Origin: Candidatus Eiseniibacteriota bacterium
Lineage (GTDB): Bacteria; Eisenbacteria; RBG-16-71-46; CAVPCR01
Assembly: GCA_963823555.1 (NCBI GenBank)
Contig: CAWGMA010000004.1
Span: 608,001-672,000 of the forward strand
Direction: 5' to 3'
DNA: 64,000 bases
In this document: positions 5,329 through 26,941 of the stretch, piece by piece
How the letters are laid out: every line of letters begins with the position of its first letter
Numbering within the stretch: the stretch's first letter is position 1
Translations under genes and position numbers: made by a program
Notes under the pieces: model-generated
Told to the model about the DNA's origin: nothing
Seen by the model: only the letters and a program-made list of their open reading frames with translations
Databases searched by the model: none

Positions 5329-8300
5329 CGCGCCGCACTCGCCTTCGCGCCGAGGGTGAGCTCGACGCGATGCACGCCGCCGTCACGAGCCAGCGGGATC
5401 CGTGCCGTGCCGTCCGTGATCGGCACCGCCGCGCCGTCAGAAGTCGCGGCGACGAGATCCGTGCCCTCGGCGCGCGGGATTCTGCGCCGTGATCTCGTAG
5501 TGGGTGTCCTCCTCCGGCAAGCGGTAGTGGATCGTGAAGCGATCCCAGCTGGCAGGAACGCGTGGTGAGAGGACGAGCGTGCGGCCTCCTTCGATGCGGA
5601 AACCGAGGAGCGATTCGAGCGCGACGCGGATCATCCAGCCGGCGGACCCGGTGTACCAGGTCCAGCCCCCGCGCCCCGATGTGCGGCGGCGCGCCGTAGA
5701 TGTCGGCGGCGATGACGTAGGGCTCGATCTGGTAGGTCGCGACGCGCTCCTGGCGTGCCTGGTGGATCGGGTTCAGGAGATCGAGGAGCTGGGCTGCGCG
5801 CTCGTTGCGGCCGAGCTCGGCCAGGGCGCGCACCACCCAGAGCGCCGCGTGCGTGTACTGGCCGCCGTTCTCGCGCACTCCCGGCACGTATCCCTTGATG
5901 TAGCCTGGATCGTGCGGGTCGTCGGCGAAGGGCGGCGTGAGGAGCCGGACGAGCTCGTCGCGCTCCGAGATCAGGTGTTGCTCCACCGCGTCCATTGCCT
6001 GCGCCGCGCGCTCCGGGGGCGCCGCCCCGGAGATCACCGCCCAGGCCTGCGCCAGGGCATCGATCCGGCATTCGTCGCTCTCGTGCGAGCCGAGCGGTGT
6101 CCCGTCGTCGTAGTAGCCGCGACGGTACCACTCGCCGTCCCAGCCCAGTCGTTGAGGGCAAGGACCAGCTCGTCGCGGTAGGCGCGGTAGCGGCGGGCAC
6201 GCTCCTCGTCGCCACGTTCGGCGCAGATGGGAATGAAGTCACCGAGGAGAGCGACCTGGAAGAAGCCGAGCCACACGCTCTCTCCCCTCCCCTCGCGGCC
6301 CACGCGGTTCATGCCGTCGTTCCAGTCGCCGGTGCCGAACAGCGGCAGCCCGTGAGCGCCGCGGGTGAGGCCGCGGTCGAGAGCGCGGCAGCAGTGCTTG
6401 TAGAGGTCGGCCGATTCGCCGGCCGGCGTCGGCACCAGGAAGGCCTCGTCCTCGCCGGGAGCGAGCTCGCGCGCGGTGAGGAAGCGCACGTTCTCGTCGA
6501 GGATCGCCGCGTCGCCCGTCGTGGCGACGTAGTACGCGGTCAGGTAGGGCAGCCAGAGCAGATCGTCCGAGAACCGCGTGCGGATGCCCTTCGACAGCGG
6601 CGGATGCCACCAGTGGAGGACATCCCCGTCGGCGAACTGGTGAGCGGCGTGGAGGAGGATCTGGGCACGCGTGAGCGCCGGGAAGAAGGGGATGAGGGCT
6701 GCTGCGTCCTGCAGCTGATCGCGAAAGCCGAAGGCACCTCCCGACTGATAGAGCGCCGAGCGGCCCCAGAGCCGGCAGCTCAGGGTCTGGTAGGGGAGCC
6801 AGCCGTTCACCATGAGATCGAGCGCGGGAGATGGTGTGGTGACCTGGATCGCGCCGAGGCGGCGTTTCCAGAAGCTCCTGACCGTGGCGAGCGCCGCGAG
6901 GGCGGCGTCAGGACCGGAGTAGCGCGCAACGAGCGCACGCGCACCGTCCGGACTCGGTGCCTCGCCGCAGAGGAAGCTCAGCGTGATCTCGGTGCCCGGC
7001 GGCAGCTCGAGCGTGACCTGCTCGGCGAAGCAAGGATCCAGGCCAGCGCCGGTGTGCCCGTCGAGCGGCGCCGGAGCGCGGAGCGCAGCTGGACTGGACA
7101 GATGACCGTGGCGCCCGAGGAAGGACACGCGATCGCCGCTGAACCAATGCGCCGACGCGGCCGGGGCCGCCACCGCAGCAAATGCCACGCCATCGCCGAA
7201 TTCCGCGGCGAGCGGATTGGTGGCGAGGAGAACCGGAGGCTTGGCGTCGGCGGTCACCGTGATGAAGCGGCCCGTCTCTTCCGGCGTCGTGCCGAGGACG
7301 AGCCGGTAGTAGGCGAAGAGAGAGAGCGATCTGAGCTCGTCGCTCATGTTCCGGAGCCGGAGCATGGTGATCTTCACCGGGTCGGCGAGCGGCACGAACT
7401 GGGTCGCCTCCTGTTGGAGCCCGGCAGCGAGGAGCCTGCACGTCGAGTAGCCGAAGCCGTGCCGCATCTCGTAGGGGGTGACCTGTCCGCTGGCTGCTCC
7501 ATGGGGCGAAGGTCCGGGGAGAGGCGACCAGAACTCGCCCGTCGCCTCGTCGCGCACGTAGAAGGCCTCCTCGTGCGGGTCGAGCAGCGGGTCGTTGCAC
7601 CACGGGGTGAGGCGGTGCTCGCGGCTGTTCCGGCTCCATGTGGTTCCGGCCCCGGTCTCGCTCGCGAGGAAGCCGAAGCTGTCGTTGGCGATGACGTTGA
7701 TCCAGGGCCGCGGTGGAAGCTGGAGGCGATCGCGATCGGGAGTGAGTCGGATCACGTACTCCGTGCCGTCGGCGTTGAAACCGCCATGGTCGTTCTCGAA
7801 GCGGAGCGATTCCGCGGGATCCGGGGCATCGCCGGGTGGAGCAGGCGTGTTGGAGACCGGGCCCGCTCCGGCGCGCGGGGGCTCCATGGCGGCGGACTCG
7901 GGGTGCGGGGCACCGGCCCCGGTATTCCGTTCCAGCGGTGGACCGAGATCCGGGAAGGCGCGGCGCAACACGAGTCGCGCCGCGGCCGCGATGAGGTCGA
8001 GCTCCGGGGGAGTCAGATCGGTCACGCGCAGCACATGGAGGCGATCGTCTGATGGTTTGGACCGGGGAATCGGCGGCGAATCGGGGCCGGTGAGAATCAC
8101 GAGATCGATCTCGAGACCCAGGGCGCGCCAGTAGCCGCGGGCAGCCAGCACGGCGGGGAGAAGCGCCATGCCGTCCGCTTCCTCCGCATGAAGGAGAGCG
8201 ATCGTGCCCGCGATCGGGAGACCGTGATGGGCCAGCGTCGAGAGGTCACCCCGCGCCCTGGCCTGGACCGCCGGATCCGCTCGCAGGCCAGGGTGCCCGT

Positions 8301-9254
8301 AGAGCATGGCTCCGGCCAGGGCCTGCAGGTAGCTCGCCTCGACCTCTGTGATGCCGAATCGGCTCTGCAGGTCGCGCTCGTGCCCCTCGGCGTCGACGAA
8401 TGCAGCATCGACGTCCGCGGCACGCAGATAGCGGTGGCCGAGGGCCAGCGTTGCCGTGCGTCCGCTCCCGGTGCCGAGCAGAAAGGTCAACTGGGTGCGC
8501 GCTCCGGGACGGAGATCGACCGTGGTGCGCAGGCTCACGATCGGATCGATCACGTCACCGGTGCTCCCAGCGAGCGGAGCGCGCGATCTCATGGCAGCCG
8601 GGGATTCCAGGCTCGACCCGCGACCGATGAAGCGCGAGCGGTCGGTCTCGAACTCCACGTGGCCGCTGCCGGCGAGGGCATGGATCAGCCACGGATGGCG
8701 TTCTCCAGCGGCCCGCGCCCGGCGCTGGACGAGCACGGCCTGCGCCTCGGGCACGAATTCGGTCTGCAGGAAGAGCTTCGAGAACGCCGGATGCGCCCTG
8801 TAGGCGGCGGCCGCATGGAGCACCACCTCGGCGAAGGATGTGATCTCGATCCGGCGCGGCCGACCCGAACGGTTGTGGAGGGTCAAGCGGCGGAGCTCGA
8901 TGGTGGATTGGGGGGGACGCCGATCTCGAGGCCGATCTCCATCCCGTGGTCGCGGCGTGCGATCTCGAATCGGCCGGGCCTGCGCCGGGCTTCGTAGTGG
9001 GTCACCGCTCCCGGTACCGGCATTCGCCCCACGGACCAGAACGCTCCCGAGTCCCGATCGCGCAGATAGATGAAGAAACCATCGCCATCCGCCGTACGGT
9101 CCCCGCGCCAGTGGGTGAGGGCGTTTGGACCCGCCGCCGAGAAGCCGGTTCCCGCGTCCGTGATGAGCACGCGATAGCTTCCGTCGCCATTGGCCAGCAC
9201 ATGGGCCGGCGGCGTCGAGGCGTCCGCTGAATGGTGGGGAGAGCTCATGGGCAT
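5325..9254 (-). CDS. GH94 glycoside phosphorylase resembling the C-terminal phosphorylase region of cyclic beta-1,2-glucan synthase (frameshifted)
   Basis: Two GH94 N-terminal supersandwich-like regions (HPAFSKLF; PWINVIAN...NSREHRLTPW), YQSGGAFGFRDQLQD, GDWNDG, ENGGQYTHAA; ATGA overlap with the GH1 gene. Confidence 0.9.
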
Positions 9255-9367
9255 TCCTGGTCTTTCCTCCGCGCGCCGCCGCAGTCTGCGCCAAGAGGGA
9301 GTGGCGTTCAACCGCGGCCCGAGCGGACGCCGCCACCGGTGGCCCCGGGCCGATTCGCCCTCCTCCC

Positions 9368-9403
9368 TTGACAAGGCGGCGGATCCATGTAATCCTTTAC
9401 ATG
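9368..9403 (+). promoter_or_regulatory. TTGACA -35 box followed by a LacI-type operator palindrome
   Basis: TTGACA at 9368-9373; perfect inverted repeat CATGTAA-TCCT-TTACATG at 9386-9403 in the divergent intergenic region. Confidence 0.75.
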
Positions 9404-9454: not shown

Positions 9455-10621
9455 TTGGCCAACATACACGATGTAGCCAGGGAGGCTGGCGTCTCGATCG
9501 CCACCGTCTCGCGCGCACTCAACGGAAGTCCGCTTGTCAGCAGGGAGACTTCCCGCCGCGTGCGCGACGCAGCCCTGCGCCTCGATTACTGGCCCAACCT
9601 CGCTGCTCGCAGCCTCCGCCAGAGCCGCACTCATGTCCTCGGGGTTCTGCTCCCCGACCTCTACGGTGACTTCTTCTCCGAGGTCATTCGCGGCATCGAC
9701 GACCAGGCTCGCCTGGACCGATTTCAGGTCCTGATCTCGAGCTCGCACGCCGAAAGCCAGGCCATCGACGCCGCGGCCCGGTCGCTGCGCGGGCGGGTCG
9801 ACGGGTTGATCGTGATGGCCCCGAGCGGAGAATCGACTCATACTCTCGATCGCATCGCGCACAAGGTGCCAGTCGTTCTCCTCAATGCCTCTTGTCCCGC
9901 CGGCAACTGCAGCGTGGTCTCGATCGCCAACTACCAGGGGGCGCAGGCCGCCGTCGGTCATCTGCTCGAGCTCGGGCACCGGGTCGTGGCCATGATCAAG
10001 GGGCCGCCCCGGAACGCGGACGCCGAGGAGCGGCTACGGGGCTTCCGGCAGGCGCTCGCGGGCTGCGGAATCCAGCCGTTGCCGGCGCTCGAATTCGCCG
10101 GGGACTTCACCGAGTATTCGGGCTATCGCGCTGCAGAGCCGATTCTTGCGGCCAGGCCCAGACCCACGGCGGTGTTTGCCGCCAATGACTACATGGCCAT
10201 CGGGTTCTTGAGCGCCCTTGGCGGGCGGGGCATCCGCGTGCCAGAGGACATGGCCCTGGTCGGGTTCGATGACATCGCCATGGCGCAGTACATCAGTCCG
10301 GCGCTGACGACCGTACACATCGATGCGCACGAACTGGGAGCGCGGGCGGTTCGACTCCTGATCTCGTCCGTGGGGTCGGATCTGGGCAACCTGCGCCGGA
10401 ACGAGGTGCTGCCGGCAACGCTCGTGGTACGGCAGTCTTCGGGGAGTCGCCGCAATGCTTCGACCATCGGCCCCGATGCCCGCGCAAGCGCCATGCAGAC
10501 AGGAGAGTCCACGTCGACCGCCGCCTTGACGCTCGATCCGGAGACGATGCCGGAACAGAGCGCCGGGCGCGCTTCAAACCAGCGTCCCAGCGCGGCTGGG
10601 CGCAGGAGGCCACCATCATGA
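9455..10621 (+). CDS. LacI-family transcriptional regulator
   Basis: IHDVAREAGVSIATVSRALN HTH, PNLAARSL hinge, AVFAANDYMAIG, VGFDD, PALTTV; TTG start. Confidence 0.96.
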   Translation: MANIHDVAREAGVSIATVSRALNGSPLVSRETSRRVRDAALRLDYWPNLAARSLRQSRTHVLGVLLPDLYGDFFSEVIRGIDDQARLDRFQVLISSSHAESQAIDAAARSLRGRVDGLIVMAPSGESTHTLDRIAHKVPVVLLNASCPAGNCSVVSIANYQGAQAAVGHLLELGHRVVAMIKGPPRNADAEERLRGFRQALAGCGIQPLPALEFAGDFTEYSGYRAAEPILAARPRPTAVFAANDYMAIGFLSALGGRGIRVPEDMALVGFDDIAMAQYISPALTTVHIDAHELGARAVRLLISSVGSDLGNLRRNEVLPATLVVRQSSGSRRNASTIGPDARASAMQTGESTSTAALTLDPETMPEQSAGRASNQRPSAAGRRRPPS

Positions 10622-12505
10622 AGGCGGGAGCGATACTCATCGGCATCACAGGGACGATGCTCGTCTTCGCGGCAAGCGCTTTCGCGCAGGCCGACCGCGA
10701 GGATGTCATGTGGGCCCGTGTGGCGCCTTCCATCACACTCGACGGCTTCTTGAACGAGCCGGCATGGGCTCAGGCCGAGTCCGTGGTCATCCGCTTCGGC
10801 GTCGATAACGGCGTCCCCGGCAGCGGCTGGAAATACGAGGGCGGCAACATCCCGAACGATCCCACGCTGGCCACGCTCAAGCTCTTGACCGTCGCCGACT
10901 CGCTCTACCTGGGCGCCGTGGTGCGCGATGCCTCGATCGGCGGATCCAGGGACTTCAACCGTTTCGACGGCTTCCTGATGGCGCTCAAGGACCACCTGGC
11001 CCCGGATTCCCCCAAGCCGCCGGCCGAGTACTTCTATGCCTGGTGGTATGCCGAGGGCACCGATCCGCAGCCGGCGGGTCAGTCGCCGGCCTTCATCGGC
11101 CGCTGGGCCGAATGGCCGCCGGGGACCCCGCGCACGCCCGAGCAGATCGCAGAACTGGAACGCCGTGACCCGGGTGCGCGGGCTCTCGAATTCCGATGCG
11201 GTCCGGGACACGAGCTACACGGTCGAGATGAAGTTCGACTTGTCGTCCATGGGTTACGACGTGACGCGGCCCGCCGGAGACATCATCGAGTGGAACATCT
11301 CGATCTATGACTGTGACTGGTTCTGGCCGATCAATGCCCAGACCTTCGCGTCGAACCGCGTCTGGTGGCAGTCACCATGGGGCAACACGGGCTGGTACAA
11401 CGAGGTCCGGGTCTACTCGCGGCCGGATGTCACGGTGAGCTCGGGGCCGGTGCCGGAGATCGGGCCGGAGCTCGTGCTCGAGGAGGTTGCCGGCACCGTG
11501 CCCACGATCGACGGCTCTCTGACCGAGCCGATCTGGAACGACCCGGATGTCTACAGCTTCCGTATCAAGTGGGGCGATGACGCCCTCAGACAGACCTATC
11601 CGGCTGTCGGACCCTATCGCTCCGGGCAGTTCCAGCCGGAGGTGAACGGCGGGCAGGCGTTCATCGCCGATCCGGGGGATGCCACGGTCAAGGTCTTCTT
11701 CCAGAACGACACCATGTACTTCGGCTTCGATGTCAACGACCGTGTGGTCCAGTACCATCCGCTCATCGACCGCTGGGATGGATTCATCGTCACCTTGAAC
11801 GAACGGTTCACGCGCGGGCCCGACCAGAATCTCCTCGGTCAGCGCCTCTCGTTCCAGGTGGGAGAGACCGGGGACGCGATCGCGCAGGACTACCTCGGAA
11901 CCCTGGTCGCGGCGGGCAGGGCGGCGGTGGCGATCGACCTCAAGCCAGGGACCACCGTCGACACGCTGGGGACGACACCGGATGTCGGATACTGGGCCGA
12001 GATGTCCGTCGATCTGACCGCCTTGAGCTACCCCGCCGGGCTCTATGACGCCACCGCCTGGCTGGGAGTCAACCTGCTCGACGGCGACTCCTTCATTCCG
12101 ATCACCGACAGCTACGGCACGCGCACCTGGTGGTTCCGCGAGTACGAAGGCCAGTGCTGTCCGGTTTGGGTGTTCCTGAATCCGATCATCACGGGTGTGG
12201 ACGATCCGGGAGCCTCGCCACCGGCGGAGACCATGCTCGTCCGGAGCTACCCCAACCCATCACCCGATCTCAGGATCGAGTACAACCTGGCTCGCGAGAG
12301 TCAGGTGACGCTCGAGGTCTTCGATGTCCAGGGCCGGCTGGTCGAGCGCCGGGAGCTCGGGCGGCAGGCGCCGGGGCGCGGGGAGACGACCTTCAACGGA
12401 TCCGGAAAGACGAGCGGGCTCTACCTCTATCGCCTCCTGGTCCGCGATGCGGACACGGGAGGGCTCACGAGCACGCTCCACGGGAGAATGGTGGTTCTCA
12501 ACTAG
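10618..12505 (+). CDS. Secreted protein with two CBM9/DOMON-like modules and a T9SS/FlgD-like C-terminal domain (one frameshift near 11150)
   Basis: Signal peptide ASAFA; repeated P-x-(I/L)DG-x-L-x-EP-x-W motif; C-terminal YPNP...VFDVQGRLV...SGLYLYRL; joins ORFs 10618-11310 and 11036-12505. Confidence 0.72.
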
Positions 12506-12526
12506 GCGCTGGGAGGACGGCTCGGC

Positions 12527-12572
12527 GAGCCGGGTCGGATCGGGGCCGGGGGGCCCGGGTCCGGTCCGGCTC
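12527..12572 (+). other. Intergenic RNA hairpin (21-bp stem, 4-nt loop)
   Basis: GAGCCGGGTCGGATCGGGGCC-GGGG-GGCCCGGGTCCGGTCCGGCTC; 20 of 21 positions pair, including 3 G-U; no U-tract. Confidence 0.7.
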
Positions 12573-12620
12573 GTTGGGGCCGGGGAGGATGGATCCGTGG
12601 TGCATGCCAACCACCGGCGG

Positions 12621-15278
12621 ATGCGATGGCTGCGTGCCCTTCTCGCTCGAGGGGGTCCGATCGCGGCGCTGCTGGCTCTCGTCACGGCCCCGCTCCTCGC
12701 GGGCACGACCGGGAAGCTCACCGGCCGCGTCTATGACCAAGAGGACCGGCCCATCATCTCGGCCGGCGTGGCCATCGTCGGCACCACCATGGGTGCCCTC
12801 ACCAACAACGATGGCGTCTTCAACGTGATCAACATCGCGCCCGGCACCTATGAGGTCAAGGTCAGCGGCATCAACTACGAGGGGGTGCTCGAGAGCATCG
12901 TCTATCAGAACATCATCATCTCCGCGGACAACTCGACCCGCCTCGATGTCGAGCTTGCCGGGACCGCGATCCCGGTCGAGGAGATCATCGTCGAGGCCAA
13001 GGAGCTGCCGATCGACATCGACGTCACCGACAGCCGCGCGACGCTCCGCAGCGAGCAGATCGAGGCGCTGCCGGTGCAGGAGCTCGAGGACGTGGTGAAC
13101 CTGCAAGCCGGGGTCGTGGACGGGCACTTCCGCGGCGGCCGCATCGGCGAGGTGCAGTACCAGGTGGATGGAGTCAGCGTCAACAACCCCTATGACAACC
13201 GGTCGACGCTGCGGATCGATCGCTCTCTATTGCAGGAAGTGCAGGTCATCAGCGGCACGTTCGACGCCGAGTACGGCCAGGCGATGAGCGGGGTCGTCAA
13301 TGCGGTCTTGAAGGACGGAACGACGGACTGGCGCTGGAACACCGAGGTCTTCGGCGGCGGATACCTCTTCGACGAGGAGGGCCGGCTCACCACCATGCAT
13401 GCCGATGCCAACACGGTGAACCTGCAGGGTTCGGTGAGCGGACCGATCCCACTGCCGAAGACCGTGTTCCTGCTCAATCTCCGGCGCTATTCTTTCGACG
13501 ACTATGTCTACGGCGTGAGACTCTTCCGTCCGACCGACAAGAATGATCTCGAGAACAAGATCTTCTATCCCACCGGCGACCTCGAGGAGGTGCCGCTCCA
13601 GTACTCGCGCGAGTTCTCCGGGCTCGGCAAGATATCGACCACGTTCCGCGACAACATGAAGCTGAGCTACCAGGCCATCTTCAACGATATCGACGGCCGG
13701 CGCGACAACTACGCCTACGTGCTGAACCCGGACGGCCTCACCGAACAGCATACCTTCTCCATCACCCATGGGTTCGACTGGCGGCGCACGCTCGGCGTGG
13801 CCTCGGCGGTCGATGTCAGCCTGCGACAGAACTACTTCAAGTACACGGATCGGGCCTACGAGGACGTCTACGATCCGCGCTATGACGCGGCCGGCCCTCC
13901 GGTGAGCGAGGACATCTTCTTCGACGCCATCGTCCAGGGGGTCGATTCCAACCGCTTCCTGCAGCGGACGAACACCTGGCTCGCCAAGGGCAACTACGCG
14001 AGCCAGGTGCATCCCGAGCACCTGATCAAGCTGGGGGGGGAGCTGCAGATGCCGCGCATCTCCTTCGGCACCGACGGCTACCTGACCTACACCCTGGTGA
14101 ATGGCGAGTACACGCTCGTCCGCCACATCGACGAGCCGCCCGACTATCCCGGAATCAACGAGTACCGCCCCGTGATCGCCTCGGGCTTCCTCCAGGACCA
14201 GATCGAATGGCCCGATCTCACCTTGCGTGCGGGCCTGCGTCTCGATGTCTTCGATGCCCGGACCTACGTGCCGGGAGATCTCGCCAATCCCGCCAACGCC
14301 ATCCAGGGCGCGCCCGCGCCGCCGCCCGTGCCGACCACGACCAAGACCTCGGCCGCCCCGCGGCTCGGGGTGGCCTATCCGATCCACGAGCGCGCCGCCG
14401 TGCATTTCTCCTACGGGCACTTCTACCAGTACCCGCCACTGAGCGACATCTTCAACAATGCCGACTACTCGGTGCTCCGGAGCCTGCAGGCCGGAGGCAT
14501 CGACTATGGAACCCTGGGCAATCCGGATATCAGGCCGGAGAAGACGGTCCAGTACGAGATCGGTTACAAGCAGGCGGTCACCGACGACTTCGGCGTCGAC
14601 ATCACCACCTTCTACAAGGACATCCGCGACCTGCTCGGAGTCGAGTTCGTGACCACCTACAACAACGCCGAGTACGCTCGGCTCACGAACATCGATTTCG
14701 GCAGCGTGGTGGGTATCACGGTCGCCCTCGACCACCGGCGGCTCGGACCCGTCCGCATGACCTTCGATTACACGTGGCAGCAGGCGACCGGGAACTCGAG
14801 CGATCCCCGGGAGACTTCGACCCGGGCCGAGGCGGGGGAGGATCCGCGGCCGCGGCTCGTGCCCTTCAACTGGGATCAGCGACACACCCTCAACCTGACG
14901 GGTTGGTGGGGGAGGCCGCGTGATTACGCGGTGAGCGGAGTGCTCCGCATCGGGAGCGGCCAGCCGTACACGCCGGTCATCGAGAGCGGGTTTGGCGGCG
15001 GGCTCGAGACCAACTCCGGGCGCAAGCCCGCCGGCGTGGTCGTCGACCTGCGCGGGGAGAAGTACCTGCCGGGGGTCATGTCCAACTTCAGTCTCTTCGG
15101 TCGCGTCTTCAACCTGTTCGACACGCGGTACTTCAACGGCGACGTCTTCAGCTCGACCGGGAGCCCTTACTACTCACGGTTCCCGGAGGCGGACCAGAAC
15201 ACCCTCTTCAACCCGACGCGGTACTACGAGCCGCGCCGGATCGAGTTCGGCATTCGCCTCGGATCGGAGGGGATGTAG
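12621..15278 (+). CDS. TonB-dependent receptor with N-terminal carboxypeptidase-regulatory-like domain
   Basis: AGTTGKLTGRV after the signal peptide; plug HFRGGR..EVQYQVDG, ISGTFDAEYGQAMSGVVN; barrel PRLGVAYPI, PEKTVQYEIG, NLFD, PRRIEFG. Confidence 0.93.
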   Translation: MRWLRALLARGGPIAALLALVTAPLLAGTTGKLTGRVYDQEDRPIISAGVAIVGTTMGALTNNDGVFNVINIAPGTYEVKVSGINYEGVLESIVYQNIIISADNSTRLDVELAGTAIPVEEIIVEAKELPIDIDVTDSRATLRSEQIEALPVQELEDVVNLQAGVVDGHFRGGRIGEVQYQVDGVSVNNPYDNRSTLRIDRSLLQEVQVISGTFDAEYGQAMSGVVNAVLKDGTTDWRWNTEVFGGGYLFDEEGRLTTMHADANTVNLQGSVSGPIPLPKTVFLLNLRRYSFDDYVYGVRLFRPTDKNDLENKIFYPTGDLEEVPLQYSREFSGLGKISTTFRDNMKLSYQAIFNDIDGRRDNYAYVLNPDGLTEQHTFSITHGFDWRRTLGVASAVDVSLRQNYFKYTDRAYEDVYDPRYDAAGPPVSEDIFFDAIVQGVDSNRFLQRTNTWLAKGNYASQVHPEHLIKLGGELQMPRISFGTDGYLTYTLVNGEYTLVRHIDEPPDYPGINEYRPVIASGFLQDQIEWPDLTLRAGLRLDVFDARTYVPGDLANPANAIQGAPAPPPVPTTTKTSAAPRLGVAYPIHERAAVHFSYGHFYQYPPLSDIFNNADYSVLRSLQAGGIDYGTLGNPDIRPEKTVQYEIGYKQAVTDDFGVDITTFYKDIRDLLGVEFVTTYNNAEYARLTNIDFGSVVGITVALDHRRLGPVRMTFDYTWQQATGNSSDPRETSTRAEAGEDPRPRLVPFNWDQRHTLNLTGWWGRPRDYAVSGVLRIGSGQPYTPVIESGFGGGLETNSGRKPAGVVVDLRGEKYLPGVMSNFSLFGRVFNLFDTRYFNGDVFSSTGSPYYSRFPEADQNTLFNPTRYYEPRRIEFGIRLGSEGM

Positions 15279-15280
15279 TG

Positions 15281-18200
15281 ATGAACGTGGCGCAGCGTCC
15301 TGGCGATCGGGGAGACAGGCGATCCGGCGCGCGAGGGAAGGGGTGGTTCGGGATCTTGGCCGCCGCCGCCGGTGCCGTGCTCCTCGCCTATGGAGCCGCC
15401 GGGGATATTCCAACGCCGGTGCCACCGGATCAGCGGGGGCGCAGCGATGCCGAGCGCTCTGGCTTCCACGATGCCAACAACCTGCGCACCGTGTTCTGGA
15501 ACTACGGCATGGTGGGCGATTACCCGGCAGATCCAGGCAATGTCGATCTCTCGCGTCTTCCACTCGGTCGAGGTGCCCAAGGGTAGCGGCATGAACTACT
15601 CGGACGGCATCACGCCGTTCGTGCTCGCGAAGATCATGCAGCGCAACGGCATCGAGTCCTACATCATGGAGACCGGATTCCGGGAGCGGCAGGCGGAGAG
15701 CCCCTTTCCGCCGCTCCGCGTGATGCGCTTCGAGCCGCGCCCGGGATACTTCGAGCCCGATCCGGGCCTCAACCCCGGTCGCTCGCCGGCGCTCTCCAAC
15801 GATCCGCGCACCTGGCCCGACCGCTGGCCGGATCGTCTCGATGACCCTGATGATCCGGGCTGGGCCGGGAGCTGGAACGGCTACTTCGGCAAGAACGTCG
15901 TCGCCGATCAGGAGTCCTACACGGTCATGGACGACGATTTCTACGACGCGTGGGACTTCTGGCCGGACAACCGGGACTCGACCCGCCACGGGCTCGGTCT
16001 CCGGATCGAGGTCCGTGGCTTCCAGTGGGCGAACCCCCAGGCGCGCAACGTCATCTTCTGGCACTACGACATCACCAACGAGGGCACAACCGACTACAAC
16101 GACAACATCATCTTCGGGCTCTACATGGACTCGGGCGTCGGTGGATCGGCGCTGTCCTGCGACAACATCTTCGAATCGGACGACGACAACGCCTTCTTCG
16201 ATCGCAGCTTCAACGAGCAGATCCTGAACCTGGTCTACACCTGGGACAAGTTCGGCCATGGACGCGATCTCTCGGGGCCCTGCGGGCGCACCGGCTACCT
16301 CGGCTACGCCTACCTGGAGACGCCCGGCAATCCGCTCGACGGCATCGACAACGACGAGGACGGGATCACCGACGAGAGGCGCGACGCCGGCCCCGGCCAG
16401 CGCCTGGCGAGCCCGGGCGAGATCGAGGCCTACGTCGCCGCCAACTACAACCAGGCGCGCTTCGAGGTGGCCTACGGGCCGCTCGCCGATCGGCCCGCCT
16501 ATCGCTCCGGCGTGTGGTGGACCGGCGACGAGGACATGGACTGGACCCCCGAGCTGCACGACGTCGGCGCCGACGGGCTGGCGGAGACCGGGGACACCGG
16601 CGAGGGGGACGGCATGCCGACCGCCGGGGAGCCCAACTTCGACCGCACCGACCTGAACGAGTCGGATCAGATCGGCCTCACCGGCTTCAAGCATGAATCG
16701 CATCCGCGCCGGCCAGGGCAATCCCAATCCCGAGGTCGACAACATTCTCTTCTACACCGACCAGAACAACTGGCCCCAGCGGCTCTACGAGAAGTTCACG
16801 AGCCCCGACTCGGCCGCGCGCTTCGATCCCGCCCTCGCCGCGAACTACAACATCGGGTTCCTGTTCGCCTCGGGGCCGTTCACGCTTGCAGGCGGGGAAG
16901 ACCGAGCGCTTCAGCCTGGCCCTGGCCTACGGCGCCGATCTCACCGAGCTCCGGCGCACGGTGCGAGACCGTGCAGCAGATCTACAACGCCAACTACCGC
17001 TTCGCCGTGCCGCCGCAGCTCCCGACCGCGTCCGCCGAGGCCGGCGACGGCTAGGTGCGCCTGTCCTGGGACGATGTGGCCGAGCGCGGCGCCGATCCGG
17101 TGACCGGCGAGTACGACTTCGAGGGCTATCGCATCTATCGCTCGACCGATCCCGAGTTCCGCGATCCGCAGGTGATCACGACCGGCACCGGCTCGGGGCC
17201 GCTCGGCAACGGTCGGCCCGATCGCCCAGTTCGATCTCGTCGACGGCAAGAGCGGGTTCTCGGATCAGACCGTCGAGGGGGTCGCCTACTATCTCGGCGA
17301 CGAGACCGGGATCACCCACACCTGGACCGACACCACGGTCACCAACGGCCAGCTCTACTACTACGCGGTCTCCGCCTACGACTTCGGATCGGAGCTCGAG
17401 CGCTTCGACTTCTACCCGTCGGAGAACGCGATCACGCGTCTCGCGCACGCCGCGCGGCGGGCTCGTCCTGCCGCGGAACGTGGTCGAGGTGCGGCCCGAT
17501 CCGCGGGTCCTGGGATTCGTCCCGGCCGATGCCGATACCGCAGCGCATGTGGCCGGCCGCGGCCGGGGCCAGGTCGGCGATCGAGGTCGTGAACTCGGGG
17601 CTCGTCCCCGACGGTCACCTCTTCGCAGCTCACCTTCGCGACGCCCGCGCCCGACAGCATCCGTGCGACGAGCTATGCGCTTCGCGACTCGACAGCCGGG
17701 GAGACCGCTCTTCACAGAGCGGACGCGATCTCGAGGGCGCAGGGTATCGGGGCCGGTCGGCTCGGGGCTCCTGCCCATCATCGAGCACGCAGAGCACGGT
17801 CCTGGTCGATTCGGCCGCGAACCGGGTTCAGCGGCGGGCAGCCCGACCAACGCCGAGATGCGCATCTTCTACCAGAACGTGCTCTCCGATCAATCGGCGG
17901 CGGCTCGGCTTCCCCGAGACATCACCGTATCGAGTTCCACGACGCGGTGGTGGACACGTCGACTCGCCATCTTCCCGCTCCCCGCCGACGCCGGCCAAGT
18001 TCAAGGTCTTCGCCGCACGGCGGACGGCGGTGATCGCCAGCTCGACTTCCGTTTCCGCGACCGCGACGGCGACGGGACCGCTGAGCCGTGCCGACGAGTT
18101 GATCGACGTCGTGACCTATCTGCCGGGCGATCCGGGCGCCGCAGATCACCTGGCGCGCCGAGCTCGACACCACCGGCACCGGCGGGCGAGGTCCTCACGC

Positions 18201-18636
18201 CGCCGGCCGAGGGCGATGTGTTCGAGATGCAGCTCGACCTGGCCCTACGGCGCGCGAGGACGTGCTCCTGTTCACCACCAGCGGCGAGCGCGTCGATCCG
18301 GATCGGGCGCGGAGCCGAGTTCGCCACGGAGCCCTACGTGGTCCCCAATCCGTACGTGGGCTCCGCGAGCTTCGAGCCGGAGCGCTTCGCCGTCTCGGGG
18401 CGCGGCGAGCGGCGGATCGAGTTCCGGGGCCTGCCGGCGCGGTGCGACGATCCGCATCTACACCGTGCGCGGCGAGCTGGTGCAGACCCTTCGGCACGAC
18501 GGTTCGAACGACGGCTTCGTGGCCTGGGATCTGCGCACCAAGGACAACCTGGACGTGGCGCCCGGACTCTACATCTTCCACGTCGACGGCGGCGACGCTC
18601 GGCACCTACATCGGCAAGTTCGCGATCATCAAGTGA
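15281..18636 (+). CDS. Large (~1100 aa) secreted protein of unknown function with Asp-rich motifs, an FN3-like segment and a T9SS-like C-terminal domain (many frameshifts, one in-frame TAG)
   Basis: HDANNLRTVFWNYG; DGIDNDEDGITDE; AGDG*VRLSWD...FEGYRIYRS...YYYAVSAYD; C-terminal YVVPNPY...IRIYTVRGELV...WDL...APGLYIFHV...GKFAIIK. Confidence 0.75.
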
Positions 18637-18653
18637 GCGTGGGAGGTGGCGCG

Positions 18654-19692
18654 ATGAAACGAGCTCTTCTGACAGCGGCAGCTGTGAGCTGGCGATCCTG
18701 CTGCGTGCTGGCGGCCGCCCCGGCCGGCGCCCAGACCAAGACGGGAACCACGCTCGGCCAGTTCCTGGGCATCGAGCCCAGCGCGCGCACGCGCGGCCAT
18801 GGGCAACGCCGGCGGTGGCGCTCGACGATGGGATCGAGTCCGTCTACTACAACCCGGCGGCTCTCGGCAGCCTGACCGACTGGGCCTTCGCAGTTCACCC
18901 ACAGCGCCTGGTTCGCCGATATCAACTACGACTACGTCGCCGGATCGCTGCCCTGTCGCGGCTGGGGCACCCTGTTCGCGCAGCGTGACCGCGCTCAACT
19001 CGGGCGAGATCGACGTGCGCACGGTGGCGCAGCCGCTCGGCACCGGCGAGCGCTACACCGTCTCCGAACGTCGCGCTCGGACTCGGTTATGGCCGCCAGA
19101 TCACCGACCGCTTCACCGCGGGCGGTCAGATCAACTACATCAACGAGACGATCTGGCACAGCTCGGCGGACATGTTCACCTTCAACCTCGGTACGGTCTA
19201 CACGCTGGCCCGGTCGCGGTGTCCGGATCGGAGCCAGCATGTCGAACATCGGCACCAGCGCGCGCTACGACGGCCGGGACCTCGCCATCCAGTACGACAA
19301 CGACGCCGGATCGTCTACGGCGACAACAGCGCGCTTCCCGGCCGAGCAGTTCACCGACGAGTTTCCCGGTGCCGATTCTCTTCCGGGTCGGTGTGAGCCT
19401 ACCCGCACCGGGTCAACGAGCGAGAACGAGGTCATGTTCCTGGCCGATGCGCTCCATCCCAACGACAACACCGAGAGCATGAGCCTGGGTGGGAGTGGAC
19501 CTGGCGCCAGACGCCTGGCCTTCCGGGCCGGATACCAGAATCTGTTCCAGGAGGATTCGGAGATCGGGCTGACCCTCGGCGCCGGCGTGCACGGCGGCGT
19601 CGGCGATAACCGCTTTCAGTTCGACTATGCCTGGGCCGACTCACGAGACGACTGGAAGAGACGCATCGGGTGACTTTCGGTATCAATTCTAG
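18654..19692 (+). CDS. PorV/PorQ-like (UPF0164) outer-membrane beta-barrel (frameshifted)
   Basis: KTGTTLGQFLGIEPSAR...MGNA...SVYYNPAAL; DALHPNDNTE; FRAGY; FDYAW; C-terminal HRVTFGIN. Confidence 0.8.
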
Positions 19693-19721
19693 GTGTCGGG
19701 GCCTGTCGCAGCCTGAGGGGA

Positions 19722-21369
19722 ATGATGAGAAGTACACCAGCGAACAGGACGGCGTCAGGCGGGACGGCCCCTGCGGGGAGGATGGCGTGGTGGGGATCGC
19801 CGCGGCCCTGCTCGCTGGCCACCTCCAGCGCCGTGGTTGCCGAGGGGATCACGCGAGGACGCTGCTCGACACCCTCCAGCACACCGCATTCGACTTCTTC
19901 TGGAACGAGGCCAACCCGGCGAACGGCCTCATCAAGGACCGGAGCACCTCCTGGTCGCCGTGCCAGCATCGCCTCGGTCGGATTCGGTCTCTCCGCCATC
20001 TGCATCGGGATCGATCACGGCTGGGTGACGCGGGAGGACGGGCGGGACCGGGTCCTGACCACGCTCGAGACCCTCTGGAACGGCCCGCAGGGGAGCGGAG
20101 CCACCGGGTTCATCGGCTACAAGGGTCTCTACTACCACTTCCTGGACATGAACATCGGCGACCCGGACCTGGGACTGCGAGCTCTCGACCATCGACACCG
20201 CGCTCCTGTTCGCCGGGATCCTCGATGCCAAGCAGTACTTCTCGAGCCGGATCCGCTCGACGTACAGGTGCGCGCGCTCGCCGATTCGATCTACTACCGT
20301 GCCGACTGGGAGTTCATGCGCAATGGCGGCCCGGCGATCCGCATGGGCTGGAAGCCCGGAACCGGATTCTCCGGATTCGGCAACTGGATCGGCTACAACG
20401 AGGCGATGATCCTCTACATCCTCGCCCTCGGATCGCCCACGTTCCCCGGTGCCGGCGACCACCTGGAACACCTGGACCAGCGGCTACAACTGGTCGACGC
20501 AGTACGGACAGACTACGTGATCTTCCCGCCGCTCTTCGGTCACCAGTACTCGCACTGCTGGATCGACTTCCGGAACATCCAGGACGCCTACATGCGCGGG
20601 CCGGGGCATCACTTACTTCGAGAACTCGCGGCGGGCGACCCTGGCCGCAGCAGGCCTACTGCATCGCCAATCCGTTCGGCTGGACCGGCTACGGCGCGAA
20701 CGTCTGGGGGATCACCGCCTCGCGACGGCCCGCGCGGCTACCCGGCTCGCGGCGCGCCGCCGCCGCAGAACGACGACGGCACGATCACCCCGACGGCGGC
20801 CGGCGGGCTCATCGCCCTTCGCGCCGGAGATCGTGATCCCGACCCTGCAGCACTTCTACGACACCTACCGGCCGCAGCTCTGGTCGACCTACGGGTTCAA
20901 GGATGCGTTCAATCTGACCCAGGTGTACTGGTGGGCACCGACTACATCGGGATCGACGAGGGCCCCATCATCGTCATGATCGAGAACTACCGGACCGGGT
21001 CCGTGTGGAACCGCTTCATGGCAGAACCCAGACGTGCAGCGTGGGCTCGAGCTGGCCGGGTTCACTGCGGTCGCCGGCATCGAGGACCCGAGCCCCGTGC
21101 CGCCCGTGACGCTCGCCCTCGAGCAGAACAGCCCGAACCCGTTCGGAGGTATGACGACCATCCCCTACACCCTGGCCGCTCCGGGCCGCGTATCCCTTGT
21201 TCTCTACGATGTGCAGGGCCGGCCGGTGCGCACCCTGGTCGAGGGCGTGCAGCCGGCCGGGAGCCATGAGGTTCACCTGGGCGCCGACGGGCTTCCCAAT
21301 GGCGTCTACTACTACCGGCTGGAAGCGAACGGTTTTGAATCGGGAAGGAGGTGCGTGGTTATCAGGTAG
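19722..21369 (+). CDS. GH144 endo-beta-1,2-glucanase-like protein with T9SS/FlgD-like C-terminal domain (frameshifted)
   Basis: SIASVGFGL, GLYYHFLDM, ELSTIDTALL, GYNEAMILYILALGSPT, PLFGHQYSHCWIDFR, YFENSRRAT, DDGTITPTA, GIDEGPIIVMIENYR; tail QNSPNPF...GVYYYRL. Confidence 0.88.
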
Positions 21370-21441
21370 GTTCACACAACTTGCTCGAGCAGCTCTTTCC
21401 TGAGTTATCTCGCACGCAGGCCGCAAAGGAGGATAGCAGCA

Positions 21442-22236
21442 ATGAACACGCGTTACTGGATGGTGGTCCTGGCCTTGGTGGCATCGGTTGCGATCGTGGC
21501 CGAGGCCTCGGCTACGCCGCCGATCAACAGCGCGGTGATCCGGGAGCGGATCTTCAACGATTGTCCGAGCTCGATACTCACCACCGTCAACAACTACCCG
21601 ACGTCGATCGTGATCGACGACGCCAATCTGGGCTGTGCCGCTGGCTTCGCCAACCTGCACAACTGGCGGTTCTCGACGGATGGCATCGATCCGGCCGTCT
21701 TCAACAATGTCGACGCATTCGAGTTCGGGGCCGACCTCGAGCTGACCGGCACCGGAAAGGGCGAATCCGGTATCCAGATCGCCCCCTGGTGGTCGCAGGA
21801 TGTGGACGGGCGGCTGAATATCAAGACCGAGGAGCTCGCGGGTGAGATCGCCTGCTTCGGCGGCCGCCTGCCGTTCTACTCGTTCACGGCGGCCCACGGC
21901 ATCACCTATACCAAGGGCACGGTGATCCACCTCGAGATGAAGTACCTGCCCAACGACCTCACCATGGCCAATCCGGGCACCATCGAGTACACGGTGGGGT
22001 ACGGCGGCATGACCTACTCGAGCGGGGTCCTGCCCTTCGATGAGGGCAACCCGGCTGAGCCCTACGGGACCTGGGGGATCCTGGACGATGCGCGCGTCGG
22101 CGCCCATGTCCAGCCCTTCATGACCCCGAACGAGCAGACCAACCTCCGCGCGGAGTGGTCCAACATCTTCTTCCGCGATCTGGCGGTTCCGGTCGAGCCC
22201 GCGACCTGGGGCGGCATCAAGTCCATCTATCGCTAA
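21442..22236 (+). CDS. Secreted protein of unknown function ending in PVEPATWGGIKSIYR
   Basis: AAGGAGG RBS, signal peptide AEASA, intact 264 aa ORF rich in predicted beta strands. Confidence 0.85.
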   Translation: MNTRYWMVVLALVASVAIVAEASATPPINSAVIRERIFNDCPSSILTTVNNYPTSIVIDDANLGCAAGFANLHNWRFSTDGIDPAVFNNVDAFEFGADLELTGTGKGESGIQIAPWWSQDVDGRLNIKTEELAGEIACFGGRLPFYSFTAAHGITYTKGTVIHLEMKYLPNDLTMANPGTIEYTVGYGGMTYSSGVLPFDEGNPAEPYGTWGILDDARVGAHVQPFMTPNEQTNLRAEWSNIFFRDLAVPVEPATWGGIKSIYR

Positions 22237-22343: not shown

Positions 22344-22751
22344 CTATGCGTGACGCGAGCGGTGCGCGGACGGTGATCGACGGGGCCGGATCCCGCAATT
22401 CTGGTAGTAGAACTTGACCGGCGGGTAGCGGAGGAGCTCCCCGAGCGGCGGCTCCTGGGCCATGGCGGCGCCGAGCAGGCGCAGCCAGAAATCGACCCCG
22501 CGAGCCGGTGAGTCGGCGTCCCTGGCGATCAGGATGCTCTCTACCCCGGTGAGATCGCAGTCGATATCAGGCGATGCGGTACCGTCCGCGATCCTCTCCT
22601 CTGCTTCCCTCAGCATCTGTGCAGCGGTCGTGACATCCACGTTCCGCTTGTTCAGTTCCTCCTGCCAGGCGGCCAGGATGGCCCAGCGGAGACTTGCCTT
22701 TTCGACCCCGGTGATCTCCACGCGAGTGGCGTGGTCTCCCAGTGTGGTCAT
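22344..22751 (-). CDS. Hypothetical protein (135 aa)
   Basis: ATG preceded by AGGGGGG RBS; globular-looking sequence MTTLGDHATRVEITG... Confidence 0.6.
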   Translation of the reverse strand: MTTLGDHATRVEITGVEKASLRWAILAAWQEELNKRNVDVTTAAQMLREAEERIADGTASPDIDCDLTGVESILIARDADSPARGVDFWLRLLGAAMAQEPPLGELLRYPPVKFYYQNCGIRPRRSPSAHRSRHA

Positions 22752-22895
22752 GGCTATCACCCCCCTGATGAAGTCTACCAGCTCCGATGTCGATTGCCAG
22801 CAGCGGACCCGCAATGCGCAGGGCCCGCGCTTGACGTCCGCGGCCAAAGGGAGGATCGTTATGGGACCGATCCCCCTTCCGGCGAAGGAGTTGCC

Positions 22896-24686
22896 ATGCC
22901 CACCTCTGTCCTTCGCGTCGTCTTGCTGGGTTCCGTTCTGCTCTCGACCGCCACCGTGGCTCTGGCCCTCGATCCGTCTCCCGGGGCCAGGAGCACGCGG
23001 TGGCTCGATGCGCCCGATTCCGGAGACATCGTTTCGCCCGCGGACGCGCCGGCGGCGGCGGGCCCGAGCGATCCCCATCCCTGCGTCGGCTGGCCGGTCA
23101 ATCTCCACTCTCCCGGGGCCGGTTTTCCTTACACGCCAACCCTCTACGATGCGGACGGCGACGGCGCCCAGGAGATCTTCCTCACCGGTGGTCACACCTT
23201 CGGGCTCCGTGGCGACGGCACCTTCCTTCCCGGCTGGCCCACGACCGAGCAGCTCTACATGGGCTACGGCACCAACGACCAGAAGCCCGGCCCCTCGGTC
23301 GCCGACCTCGAGAATGACGGCGACACCGAGATCCTGTGGTCGGAGCGCGACTGGTATGCGGGGAGCGCGCGCATGTGGAGCTTCAACGGCAAGGAGTTCG
23401 ACGCCACGAACCTGCCGGGCTTCCCGCAGGAGGCGATCGGCGGGTCATCCAACGCGCTCGATGTGCCCTTCGTTCTCGGCGACACCGACGGCGACGGGTT
23501 GCTCGAGGCCTGGGGGCCCCACACGCTCGGTAACAACTTCGTTCACTACCGGATCTCCGCCTTCGATCATCTCGGGACTCGGCTCTTCACCACCGATCTC
23601 AATCCGGCGGAGAACATCCTCTCCCTCTACTTCGGTGACCTCGATGGGAACGGCGCCGAGGAGATGTTCGCGATCTCGTTCCTGAGCCCATCGCTCTTCC
23701 TGCACGCCTTCACCGCGACCGGGACCGAGCTCCCTGGGTATCCCATCACCTTGCACACCTTTGCCGGCGGCAATCTGCCGTTCGGGCCGCCGGTGCCGGC
23801 GGATCTCGACGGGGACGGGGATCTCGAGATCCTCATCGGGCACTGGGACGGCGCCGGCTCGCGAGTCCATGCCCATCATCACGATGGCGCTCCGGTCGCC
23901 GGGTTCCCCCTCGCGATCGCGACCTCGAGCCAGCTCTTCTACTTCTGTCTGGGCGATCTCACCGGCGACCGCCGGCCCGAGCTCATCGCCTTCGACAATC
24001 ACCTGGGAGGGGCCTACCGCGTCCACGCGATCAACCTGACCACGGGGCTTCCCCTTGCCGGCTGGCCCTACCCCGTGTCCGGCTGGCCCGAGGGTTTCCC
24101 GACCGTCGTCGATGTCGACAATGACGGATTCCAGGATGTCTGTCTGGCCACCGGTGCTGGCGACCTGCGGGCGATCGATCGCACGGGGCAGCTCATTGCC
24201 GGCTATCCGCAGATGATGATCTCGCCTTCGATCTCCGGCGTGGCGGCGGGCGACATCGACGGCGACGGCCTCTTCGAACTGGTCGCCGCGACCTGGGACG
24301 GCTGGGTCTATGCGTGGGACACGACCGGTGAAGCGCGCCCGGAGCGGGCCGACTGGCCGCTTCGCAACGTGAACGCGCGCAACACGGGCATCTATGGCGA
24401 CAGCGGAAGCACGGCCGGAGTCGCCACCACGCCGCCGGAAACCGATGGGCGGCTCTCGGTGGCGCCCAATCCCATCGTTGGTCGAGCCGAGTTCCGGATC
24501 ACCGGCACGCGCAGCCCGGCGGTGCTCGAGATCTTCGACTCGACGGGGCGGATCGTCGATCGGCTCGGCCCGATCGCCGGGCCGTCCGCGGTGTGGCAGC
24601 CGCCGCCATCGGCGGCCGCCGGGGTCTACTTCGCGCGCCTCGGCTCCGGATCCGCCCCGGGGATCAAGCTGCTCGTGCTCAGATAG
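22896..24686 (+). CDS. FG-GAP/VCBS repeat beta-propeller protein with T9SS-like C-terminal domain
   Basis: AAGGAG RBS, signal peptide, repeated DxDxDGxxE and G(W/F/Y)P motifs; tail APNP...IFDSTGRIV...AGVYFARL. Confidence 0.88.
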   Translation: MPTSVLRVVLLGSVLLSTATVALALDPSPGARSTRWLDAPDSGDIVSPADAPAAAGPSDPHPCVGWPVNLHSPGAGFPYTPTLYDADGDGAQEIFLTGGHTFGLRGDGTFLPGWPTTEQLYMGYGTNDQKPGPSVADLENDGDTEILWSERDWYAGSARMWSFNGKEFDATNLPGFPQEAIGGSSNALDVPFVLGDTDGDGLLEAWGPHTLGNNFVHYRISAFDHLGTRLFTTDLNPAENILSLYFGDLDGNGAEEMFAISFLSPSLFLHAFTATGTELPGYPITLHTFAGGNLPFGPPVPADLDGDGDLEILIGHWDGAGSRVHAHHHDGAPVAGFPLAIATSSQLFYFCLGDLTGDRRPELIAFDNHLGGAYRVHAINLTTGLPLAGWPYPVSGWPEGFPTVVDVDNDGFQDVCLATGAGDLRAIDRTGQLIAGYPQMMISPSISGVAAGDIDGDGLFELVAATWDGWVYAWDTTGEARPERADWPLRNVNARNTGIYGDSGSTAGVATTPPETDGRLSVAPNPIVGRAEFRITGTRSPAVLEIFDSTGRIVDRLGPIAGPSAVWQPPPSAAAGVYFARLGSGSAPGIKLLVLR

Positions 24687-26327: not shown

Positions 26328-26941
26328 GATGACTCCCTCCGCACCGTCGATGGGCTCGTCTCCCAGGACGGCTGAGCGGCGACCATGGCCGCCCTGCCGC
26401 TCCGCGTGTCGACTCCCAGCCGGCGGTAGTGCGCGCGGAGACGGGCGTGACCGCGCGCGACTCGCGACTTCACCGCGGATACCGTGACCTTCTGCATGGC
26501 CGCGATCTCCGACATCGAGAAGCCCTCGATGTCATGGAGGACGACCGCCTCGCGTTGCACGGCGGGCAGGGTGGCGAGCGCCCGGGACGCTCGCTCCGCC
26601 CGCTCTCGCTCCTCTTCGCCGTGACGGCCATCCGCGCCCCGTGGATCGACTCCGGAGGCGAGGAGGGCGGTGAGGGAGAGGAATCGCCGCCAGAACGGGC
26701 GGCGGCTTCTCCCCCGGTGCACGGAGATGAGGACGGCATAGAACCAGGATCGGAAGCTCGTCTCGTCGCGAAGCAGGGGAAGCTTGGCGTGGGCGCGCAG
26801 CACGGCTTCCTGAAACAGGTCGTCCCCATCCGCCGGCGAGCGGCAGAACCGCCGCGCCGTGGCCCGAGCCTGGTCGTGGAAGGGCGTGAGAAGTCGGATC
26901 AGGGCTTCCCAGCGCTCGCTGTCGGTCGCGCCTTGCATCAC
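26324..26941 (-). CDS. ECF RNA polymerase sigma factor
   Basis: DDLFQEA, FRSWFY (region 2); LPAVQREAVVLHDIEGFSMSEIA...VKSRVARG (region 4). Confidence 0.93.
   Translation of the reverse strand: MMQGATDSERWEALIRLLTPFHDQARATARRFCRSPADGDDLFQEAVLRAHAKLPLLRDETSFRSWFYAVLISVHRGRSRRPFWRRFLSLTALLASGVDPRGADGRHGEEERERAERASRALATLPAVQREAVVLHDIEGFSMSEIAAMQKVTVSAVKSRVARGHARLRAHYRRLGVDTRSGRAAMVAAQPSWETSPSTVRRESS

Follow-up and report, generated by a model that had tools for sequence, protein, structure and literature searches.

At positions 9455–22236 of a 64,000-nt stretch of Candidatus Eiseniibacteriota DNA (the whole stretch analysed, hereafter the window), a run of co-oriented genes encodes in succession a TonB-dependent transporter (TBDR), a protein of ~1,100 aa that we call BIG, and a beta-barrel of the PorV/PorQ family. 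Our analysis indicates that this TBDR-BIG-barrel triad likely replaces the textbook SusC/SusD sugar-capture pair. We rate slightly above even the chance that the whole chain holds, that is, that the barrel retains BIG by an uncut C-terminal domain (CTD) beside the TBDR, and that BIG plays a SusD-like capture role there. The features of the locus are as follows.

3976–5310, − strand: GH1 beta-glucosidase of the divergent catabolic arm (PF00232, E 1.8e-69; 68% identity to its ortholog; 6 frameshifts)
5285–9278, − strand: GH94 phosphorylase of the beta-1,2-oligoglucan type, also in the divergent arm (5 breaks)
9388–9401, no strand: palindromic LacI-type operator between the two gene arms (pattern TGTAAnCGnTTACA)
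9455–10621, + strand: LacI-family regulator (PF00356 and PF13377)
10618–12505, + strand: secreted tandem CBM9/DOMON-type protein, its CTD of the ordinary type A and set behind a flexible linker (TIGR04183 above cut-off)
12600–15278, + strand: TBDR (PF13620, PF07715 and PF00593; frame intact)
15281–18636, + strand: BIG, ~1,100 aa, without a Pfam family (76% identity to intact orthologs; 28–29 breaks)
18654–~19694, + strand: PorV/PorQ-family beta-barrel of the triad-associated group (14–15 breaks; end approximate)
~19722–21369, + strand: GH144 endo-beta-1,2-glucanase homologue with an ordinary CTD (PF10091; 11 breaks; start approximate)
21442–22236, + strand: TWG-tail protein, 264 aa, with a hydrophobic N-terminus (no family match; accessory)

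Open reading frame (ORF) and family scans recovered all seven genes from the LacI regulator to the TWG-tail protein, closely packed on the + strand, which bears out the tightly packed, co-oriented run described in an earlier note on this DNA, with every gene in its place. GH94, GH1 and the operator, missing from that note, belong to the locus as well. The TBDR carries a carboxypeptidase-regulatory-like N-terminal extension (PF13620) and scores 41.3 bits on the SusC/RagA model TIGR04056 against a cut-off of 368.25, and hence does not classify as SusC/RagA. None of the 24 window ORFs scanned matched a Pfam SusD family, and the gene downstream of the TBDR models as a beta-rich protein; the absence of a SusD-like lipoprotein, also claimed previously, is thus upheld.

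The triad is widely conserved. The N-terminal half of BIG found matches of 67–82% identity in 17 of 40 class relatives, and gene order was unchanged among the genes listed for the 18 class regions fetched (the simple ORF caller missed some genes). We also examined the best 80 of 596 confirmed stretches, drawn from one eighth of the genome collection; being the closest relatives, these loci are biased to beta-1,2-glucan as substrate. By record titles, they span Eisenbacteria, Krumholzibacteriia, Ignavibacteria, Calditrichota, KSB1, Rhodothermales, Chlorobiales and Marinimicrobia. Directly upstream of BIG lies a TBDR in 72 of the 80, a contig end in 7 and a gene masked by an overlapping ORF in 1; directly downstream, 68 loci have a barrel, 10 break off at a contig end and 2 show an unassigned gene. 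Intergenic gaps do not exceed 60 nt in 68/72 cases on the TBDR side and 63/69 on the barrel side. The companion genes are GH144 in 56 loci, GH94 in 48 and the CBM9-like gene in 58. A 2,014-aa frame in locus L066 that looked like a TBDR-BIG fusion scored as BIG only and was discarded as an overlapping open frame.

Five genomes hold 10, 19, 13, 8 and 4 BIG-type genes, as counted with a broader profile and our own merging of its matches. Forty paralogue regions from these genomes, which contain 41 of the ~49 BIG-type genes not previously covered, yielded 30 direct TBDR-BIG-barrel arrangements, 1 with an intervening ORF and 4 rearranged with all three genes present. Scanning of 81 and 27 neighbours revealed that the cargo differs between triads, including GH16, GH3, GH5-CBM6, GH13, CBM20, GH97, GH53 and GH106, alongside sugar ABC and sodium-solute transporters, M14 and M23 peptidases and GWxTD proteins. 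The BIG family comprises 6,180 clusters at E<=0.001, the weaker ones captured partly via the CTD, and 876 at 1e-30. The anticipated synteny of a TBDR, a large protein and a PorV-like barrel therefore extends across several phyla related to the Fibrobacteres-Chlorobi-Bacteroidetes (FCB) group, with variable carbohydrate-active enzymes (CAZymes) as suspected. We found no published description of this triad in a search that left most subscription papers and supplements outside. Two further triads of this genome lack CAZymes: TBDR-BIG paralogue (955 aa)-barrel at C1:971575-977712 (L039) and TBDR-barrel-small protein-BIG paralogue at C1:2233187-2239813 (L163).

Since the window genes carry breaks (see below), protein analyses were conducted on intact orthologs. 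The model of a same-genus BIG ortholog (predicted local distance difference test score (pLDDT) 92.9, predicted template modelling score (pTM) 0.86) displays a beta-supersandwich with acidic DxDxDG inserts at residues ~10–530, followed by an FN3-like domain, a beta-rich region and a variant CTD. The supersandwich resembles domains without a catalytic role at the N-terminus of GH15/GH94-type enzymes (best Z 20.8, root-mean-square deviation (rmsd) 3.0, 264 residues aligned), mutarotase-like proteins (Z 13–14) and the YidC periplasmic domain (Z 12.2). These matches span ~210–290 residues, and nothing in the model corresponds to the helical domain that forms the catalytic barrel in GH15/GH94/GH65 enzymes. 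Whole-protein searches returned only low-TM FN3/Ig matches in Foldseek and only unnamed clusters in the ESM Atlas; residues 695–960 gave no usable Atlas match and were barely covered by the fold search. No Pfam family passes its cut-off in BIG orthologs, in line with the former view of an unknown ~1,100-aa protein, and BIG is neither a SusD nor a member of a named enzyme family. Among diverse members, R203 never varies, E169 and D176 hardly do, and no histidine is invariant. A lipobox-like motif occurs in 2/66 orthologs and is absent from the other 64, with signal peptides judged by eye only.

The barrel is PorV-like, as had been proposed. All three orthologs scored 169–199 bits on the PorV/PorQ family model NF033709 (cut-off 90), the frameshifted window copy scored 34 bits, and the best solved relative is PorV (6h3i_F, E 1.2e-23). 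The orthologs nonetheless fail the equivalog models of both PorV (NF033710, 47–82 vs 250) and PorQ (NF033711, 80–100 vs 220), and their FadL Pfam scores are below cut-off. At least six other PorV/PorQ-family members of the genome exceed the family cut-off, one encoded directly after porU. A quick tree put every one of the 53 triad barrels on one side of a branch with 96% support in the Shimodaira–Hasegawa-like approximate likelihood ratio test (SH-aLRT), which separates them from the PorV next to porU and from four further paralogues in this genome. Elsewhere in the genome, C1:176529-180811 and C1:291596-300167 each encode large CTD proteins followed directly by their own PorV-family gene and without a TBDR; pairing of cargo with a barrel thus reaches beyond the triad. 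At C1:1791949-1803133 (L162), a CTD protein accompanies a PorV-family barrel with a C-terminal extension, followed by TPR-like, ExbB-like, two ExbD-like and TonB-like genes, as judged by eye.

The CTDs set BIG apart from its neighbours. The claim that three members of the run end in type IX secretion system (T9SS)-like CTDs stands as to the three domains, which are nevertheless of two types. Neither of two BIG orthologs matched TIGR04183/PF18962, and a paralogue in this genome narrowly passed (23.6 vs a cut-off of 23). Structurally, the BIG CTD aligns with that of PorZ (5m11; Z 11.9, rmsd 2.0, 93 residues, 26% identity), and a PDB sequence search gave weak matches to PorZ and PorU (E 0.004–0.025). 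Its PNP, GxY and terminal basic motifs are invariant in alignment A1, and it is joined through an ordered helix (957–966, pLDDT above 90), not a flexible linker. A cleavage-type linker motif was detected in 43/48 CBM9-like orthologs, 21/34 GH144 orthologs and 6/66 BIG orthologs, according to a loose pattern of our own after the consensus in PMC11969387, with some rows mis-anchored.

A BIG-CTD profile retrieved six genes of this genome above 50 bits, whereas 232 ORFs prefer the ordinary CTD profile. A barrel lies within 9 kb of 3/6 BIG-type genes and of 7/232 ordinary-CTD ORFs, and a TBDR is near 4/6 and 11/232, respectively. The three BIG-type CTD genes without a nearby barrel (C1:274238-275344, C1:1052716-1055088 and C1:442776-445544) sit beside lipoprotein-like genes, one of them with a TBDR two genes away. 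GH144 and the CBM9-like protein carry ordinary CTDs behind cleavage-type linkers and the genome has a separate porU-porV pair, which weakens the suggestion that the barrel tethers these two proteins as well.

Core T9SS genes, whose presence the earlier note had left to be checked, were found in part. SprA is above cut-off in 41/41 class genomes, this one included, and PorU scores 475 bits here (cut-off 420) and is followed by a PorV-family gene, which accounts for SprA, PorU and a canonical PorV. GldM (TIGR03517) and GldN (TIGR03523) had no match in this 92.5% complete genome, where divergent forms are possible; PorK and PorL were not searched. Export of type IX may thus run here without a known motor. 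SusD (PF07980) was found in 0/41 class genomes, this one among them, while the Bacteroides thetaiotaomicron positive control matched; among five triad-rich genomes of other groups, two contain it. We also sampled 81 genomes of the phylum around genome G048. GldM passes its cut-off in 19 of them, which serves as control for TIGR03517; none of the 37 BIG-positive genomes is among these, and the 19 GldM-positive genomes lack BIG. SusD matches are absent from 16 of the 37 and number 1–5 in the remaining 21, and all 14 genomes with at least six SusD matches are devoid of a BIG match.

The locus likely serves the breakdown and uptake of beta-1,2-glucan, as predicted from its GH144, GH94 and GH1 enzymes. 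The GH144 ortholog matched XcSGL (8xul, E 5.5e-121), a proven beta-1,2-glucanase with clan residues E239, F286 and Y367 in XcSGL numbering (PMC12102758). Equivalents of the three residues align in the ortholog and are also visible in the window ORFs, which places the protein in GH144. The model of the CBM9-like ortholog (pLDDT 91.9; linker residues 503–513 below 50) superposes on Thermotoga maritima CBM9 (1i82; Z 17.2, rmsd 2.9, 176 residues aligned), and on this modelled similarity the tandem protein likely binds glycan. Allowing up to two mismatches, the operator pattern has its sole match in the 64-kb window at 9388–9401. It recurs in 16/18 class relatives, both misses being short contigs without upstream DNA. 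The pattern is loose in AT-rich DNA, matching 19/57 shuffled loci and 18/40 other-cargo loci, and is uninformative for AT-rich genomes. LacI, operator, GH144, GH94, GH1 and the CBM9-fold protein hence bring together a regulator and substrate-matched CAZymes, as in a polysaccharide utilization locus (PUL). A ~1,060-aa protein annotated with nothing but an F5/8 type C domain (L099:14663-17875, with 15 further ORFs like it) recurs in beta-1,2-glucan loci of Ignavibacteria and others and is a candidate for a new enzyme of beta-1,2-glucan breakdown.

Collectively, these data suggest the following mechanism. LacI would repress both arms through the operator; GH144 would cut beta-1,2-glucan outside the cell, the oligomers would enter via the TBDR, and GH94 and GH1 would finish degradation inside. 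Taken jointly, this control and pathway are highly probable. BIG would exit through SprA, be collected by its own barrel rather than by the general PorV, escape PorU cleavage and stay barrel-bound as PorZ does on PorQ, an anchoring step for which we consider the chances good, at about three to one in plain terms of expectation. GH144 and the tandem-CBM9 protein would instead take the general PorV/PorU route and work next to the core, the former as an enzyme and the latter as a binding protein, which is fairly probable. The fixed position of BIG and the barrel behind the transporter suggests that the anchored protein serves import; its supersandwich could sit over the transporter mouth and help to bind or funnel oligosaccharides, a lid step that we deem evenly balanced. 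More tentatively, and at somewhat under even chances, the triad could be a second machine for capture at the outer membrane, of independent construction, in the FCB-related phyla. It would then be a complex of three proteins with a T9SS-exported, barrel-tethered supersandwich protein as its substrate-specific lid and with export that needs no GldM motor, and would provide the main polymer uptake route in Ignavibacteria, Calditrichota, KSB1, Marinimicrobia and Eisenbacteria.

Several observations weigh against this proposal. Binding is inferred throughout, with BIG-transporter contact deduced from gene order; no carbohydrate-binding site was located on BIG, and the supersandwich fold does not by itself show its function. 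BIG and SusD are not mutually exclusive, given that 21/37 BIG-positive genomes carry both, and the contrast between BIG and SusD-rich genomes probably reflects one lineage split rather than independent events, because kin genomes are not independent. GldM and GldN, the motor and ring parts of canonical T9SS export, had no match in this genome. The linker contrast is blurred by 14/39 distant BIG paralogues that match the cleavage-type pattern, and the barrel tree is a quick one, with a single canonical PorV and outgroup rows on long branches. As for gene association, 5/40 distant-paralogue regions have neither TBDR nor barrel, and the same applies within 9 kb to 2/6 BIG-type genes of this genome, one more being without a barrel. 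Some triads adjoin peptidases or no recognisable CAZyme, and glycan capture is therefore not their universal role.

Alternative readings assign BIG or the barrel a different task. BIG might be barrel-anchored yet operate as a scaffold or assembly factor that stabilises the TBDR or docks enzymes and binding proteins, leaving sugar binding to the tandem-CBM9 protein. The frequent company of that protein (58/80 loci), the triads with non-glycan cargo, the fold shared with the YidC periplasmic domain and the precedent of BamG, a FadL-family barrel that anchors the surface protein BamH to BamA (PMC12611786), all speak for such a role. We nevertheless consider it unlikely, since the top fold matches of BIG are domains of carbohydrate enzymes and its sequence behaves as if it tracked the substrate, with 50–73% identity across phyla within most beta-1,2-glucan loci vs ~24–45% for most other-cargo paralogues, a pattern that transfer of whole loci would also produce. 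Somewhat less probable still is a barrel with no special tie to BIG, which would shuttle or anchor every CTD protein that the locus encodes, or else form a FadL-type channel that passes a small hydrophobic molecule. Its PorV/FadL superfamily and the three CTD proteins encoded around it would fit, but the ordinary-CTD genes vary in presence between loci where the barrel remains adjacent to the TBDR or BIG, such genes are seldom near a barrel (7/232 in this genome), FadL scores stay under cut-off, and a canonical porU-porV pair is present. It is improbable that BIG represents a new family of surface enzymes, for instance an epimerase or glycanase on a supersandwich that prepares substrate for the TBDR. 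Galactose-mutarotase-like proteins share the fold, and R203, E169 and D176 are conserved; against this, BIG is devoid of the helical catalytic barrel of the matched enzymes and of an invariant histidine, the residue that mutarotases use, and starch, beta-glucan and peptide cargo beside one family fits a single reaction poorly.

The breaks in the window raise the further question of whether the locus is a decaying pseudogene set in this organism. Frameshift-aware alignment to intact orthologs put the number of breaks at 28–29 for BIG, 14–15 for the barrel and 11 for GH144, with a single one near 11155 for the CBM9-like gene, and the ~55 across three adjoining genes, together with one in-frame stop in BIG, would agree with decay. 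Most are, however, single extra bases concentrated within 16.7–21.0 kb, identity to intact orthologs persists (76% for BIG, 65% for the barrel, 65–70% for GH144), and most relatives have intact orthologs. Short-read contigs from other samples, whose patchy coverage allows only part of the breaks to be checked, lack the extra bases where they overlap: one is 99% identical over 15365–16115 with 1 gap, and a ~94% relative over 18921–19341 has 8 gaps, those listed being bases left out. Because of these intact orthologs and short-read contigs, the breaks are very likely long-read assembly errors, and a pseudogene set is very improbable. Contigs from one RNA run match 21229–22224 with 0–1 differences, which is no proof of transcription.

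Other features of the locus and its surroundings bear less on the triad. The TWG-tail protein matched 0 Pfam or NCBIfam families, and its gene is present in 12/80 loci, mostly of Eisenbacteria/Krumholzibacteria. Its ~15-residue tail ends 92 ORFs of the genome, the motif occurring elsewhere than at the C-terminus only 8 times, and opens with the same small-residue-V-E joint that precedes ordinary CTDs (window copy 22189–22236). Just past the locus, 22731–24686 on the − strand encodes an FG-GAP repeat protein with a CTD-like C-terminus, for which no conserved neighbour status was seen, and 25371–26941 an extracytoplasmic function (ECF) sigma factor and then a membrane-anchored protein, possibly its anti-sigma factor. 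A promoter and terminator scan yielded nothing exceeding shuffles. The closest named homologue was from Candidatus Eisenbacteria (74%).

Known systems offer partial parallels. As in SusC/SusD PULs (PULDB, PMC5753385; review, PMC13543919), a dedicated surface partner comes immediately behind the TBDR, paralogues are many per genome, and regulator, glycosidases and binding protein vary with the substrate. In contrast to them, the TBDR fails the SusC/RagA model, BIG is about twice the size of SusD, all-beta, mostly without a lipobox and equipped with a T9SS CTD, and the barrel adds a third gene to the core. In PorZ and PorU, the CTD is retained and stays attached to PorQ and PorV (PMC10202324, PMC10947112). 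The triad likewise combines a PorV/PorQ-family barrel with a protein that likely retains a type A-like CTD; PorZ and PorU are among the few PDB matches of the BIG CTD. Those are single housekeeping secretion parts, whereas the BIG-barrel pair occurs up to 19 times per genome, is tied to a transporter and has a barrel below both equivalog cut-offs. Genes of type B cargo cluster with cognate PorP/SprF barrels, suggested to shield the CTDs from cleavage (PMC10202324). There too, the genes for a cargo protein and for the barrel that anchors it go together, and the CTD is probably uncut. Unlike that system, the triad barrel matches NF033709, neither the barrel nor BIG was assigned a PorP/SprF or type B (TIGR04131) model, and known type B pairs serve adhesins, not importers. 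In BamG-BamH, much as proposed for the triad, a FadL-family barrel of 14 strands keeps a large surface protein next to a second barrel, but BamH is a lipoprotein held by its N-terminus (PMC12611786), and the triad barrel scores 27–35 bits on BamG against a cut-off of 250. The locus thus works like a PUL yet lies outside SusC/SusD, and follows the PorZ-PorQ anchoring logic outside the PorV and PorQ equivalogs.

A genome of Ignavibacterium album (L072) has an orthologous locus with LacI, GH94, CBM9-like, TBDR, BIG, barrel, GH144 and GH35 genes. In this organism, GH35 of the cluster IALB_1177-1187 has been characterised, and beta-1,2-glucan use and TBDR import have been proposed; the available part of that paper discusses enzymes and transporters and does not mention the large partner or the barrel (PMC8861115). 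What is new here is the beta-1,2-glucan instance of the triad in this class, the contrast between two CTDs and the link to the studied cluster of a cultured strain.

PUL prediction is keyed on the susC/susD pair (PMC5753385, PMC13543919), and glycan-uptake loci of whole uncultured phyla are therefore missed. The triad offers a marker for such loci, with thousands of clusters without a Pfam model and a cargo that names the substrate. The reading is testable, as cultured I. album has an orthologous beta-1,2-glucan locus with one enzyme already characterised. If it is true, anchoring of an uncut CTD by a cognate barrel, as in PorZ-PorQ and type B cargo, would be extended to nutrient import.

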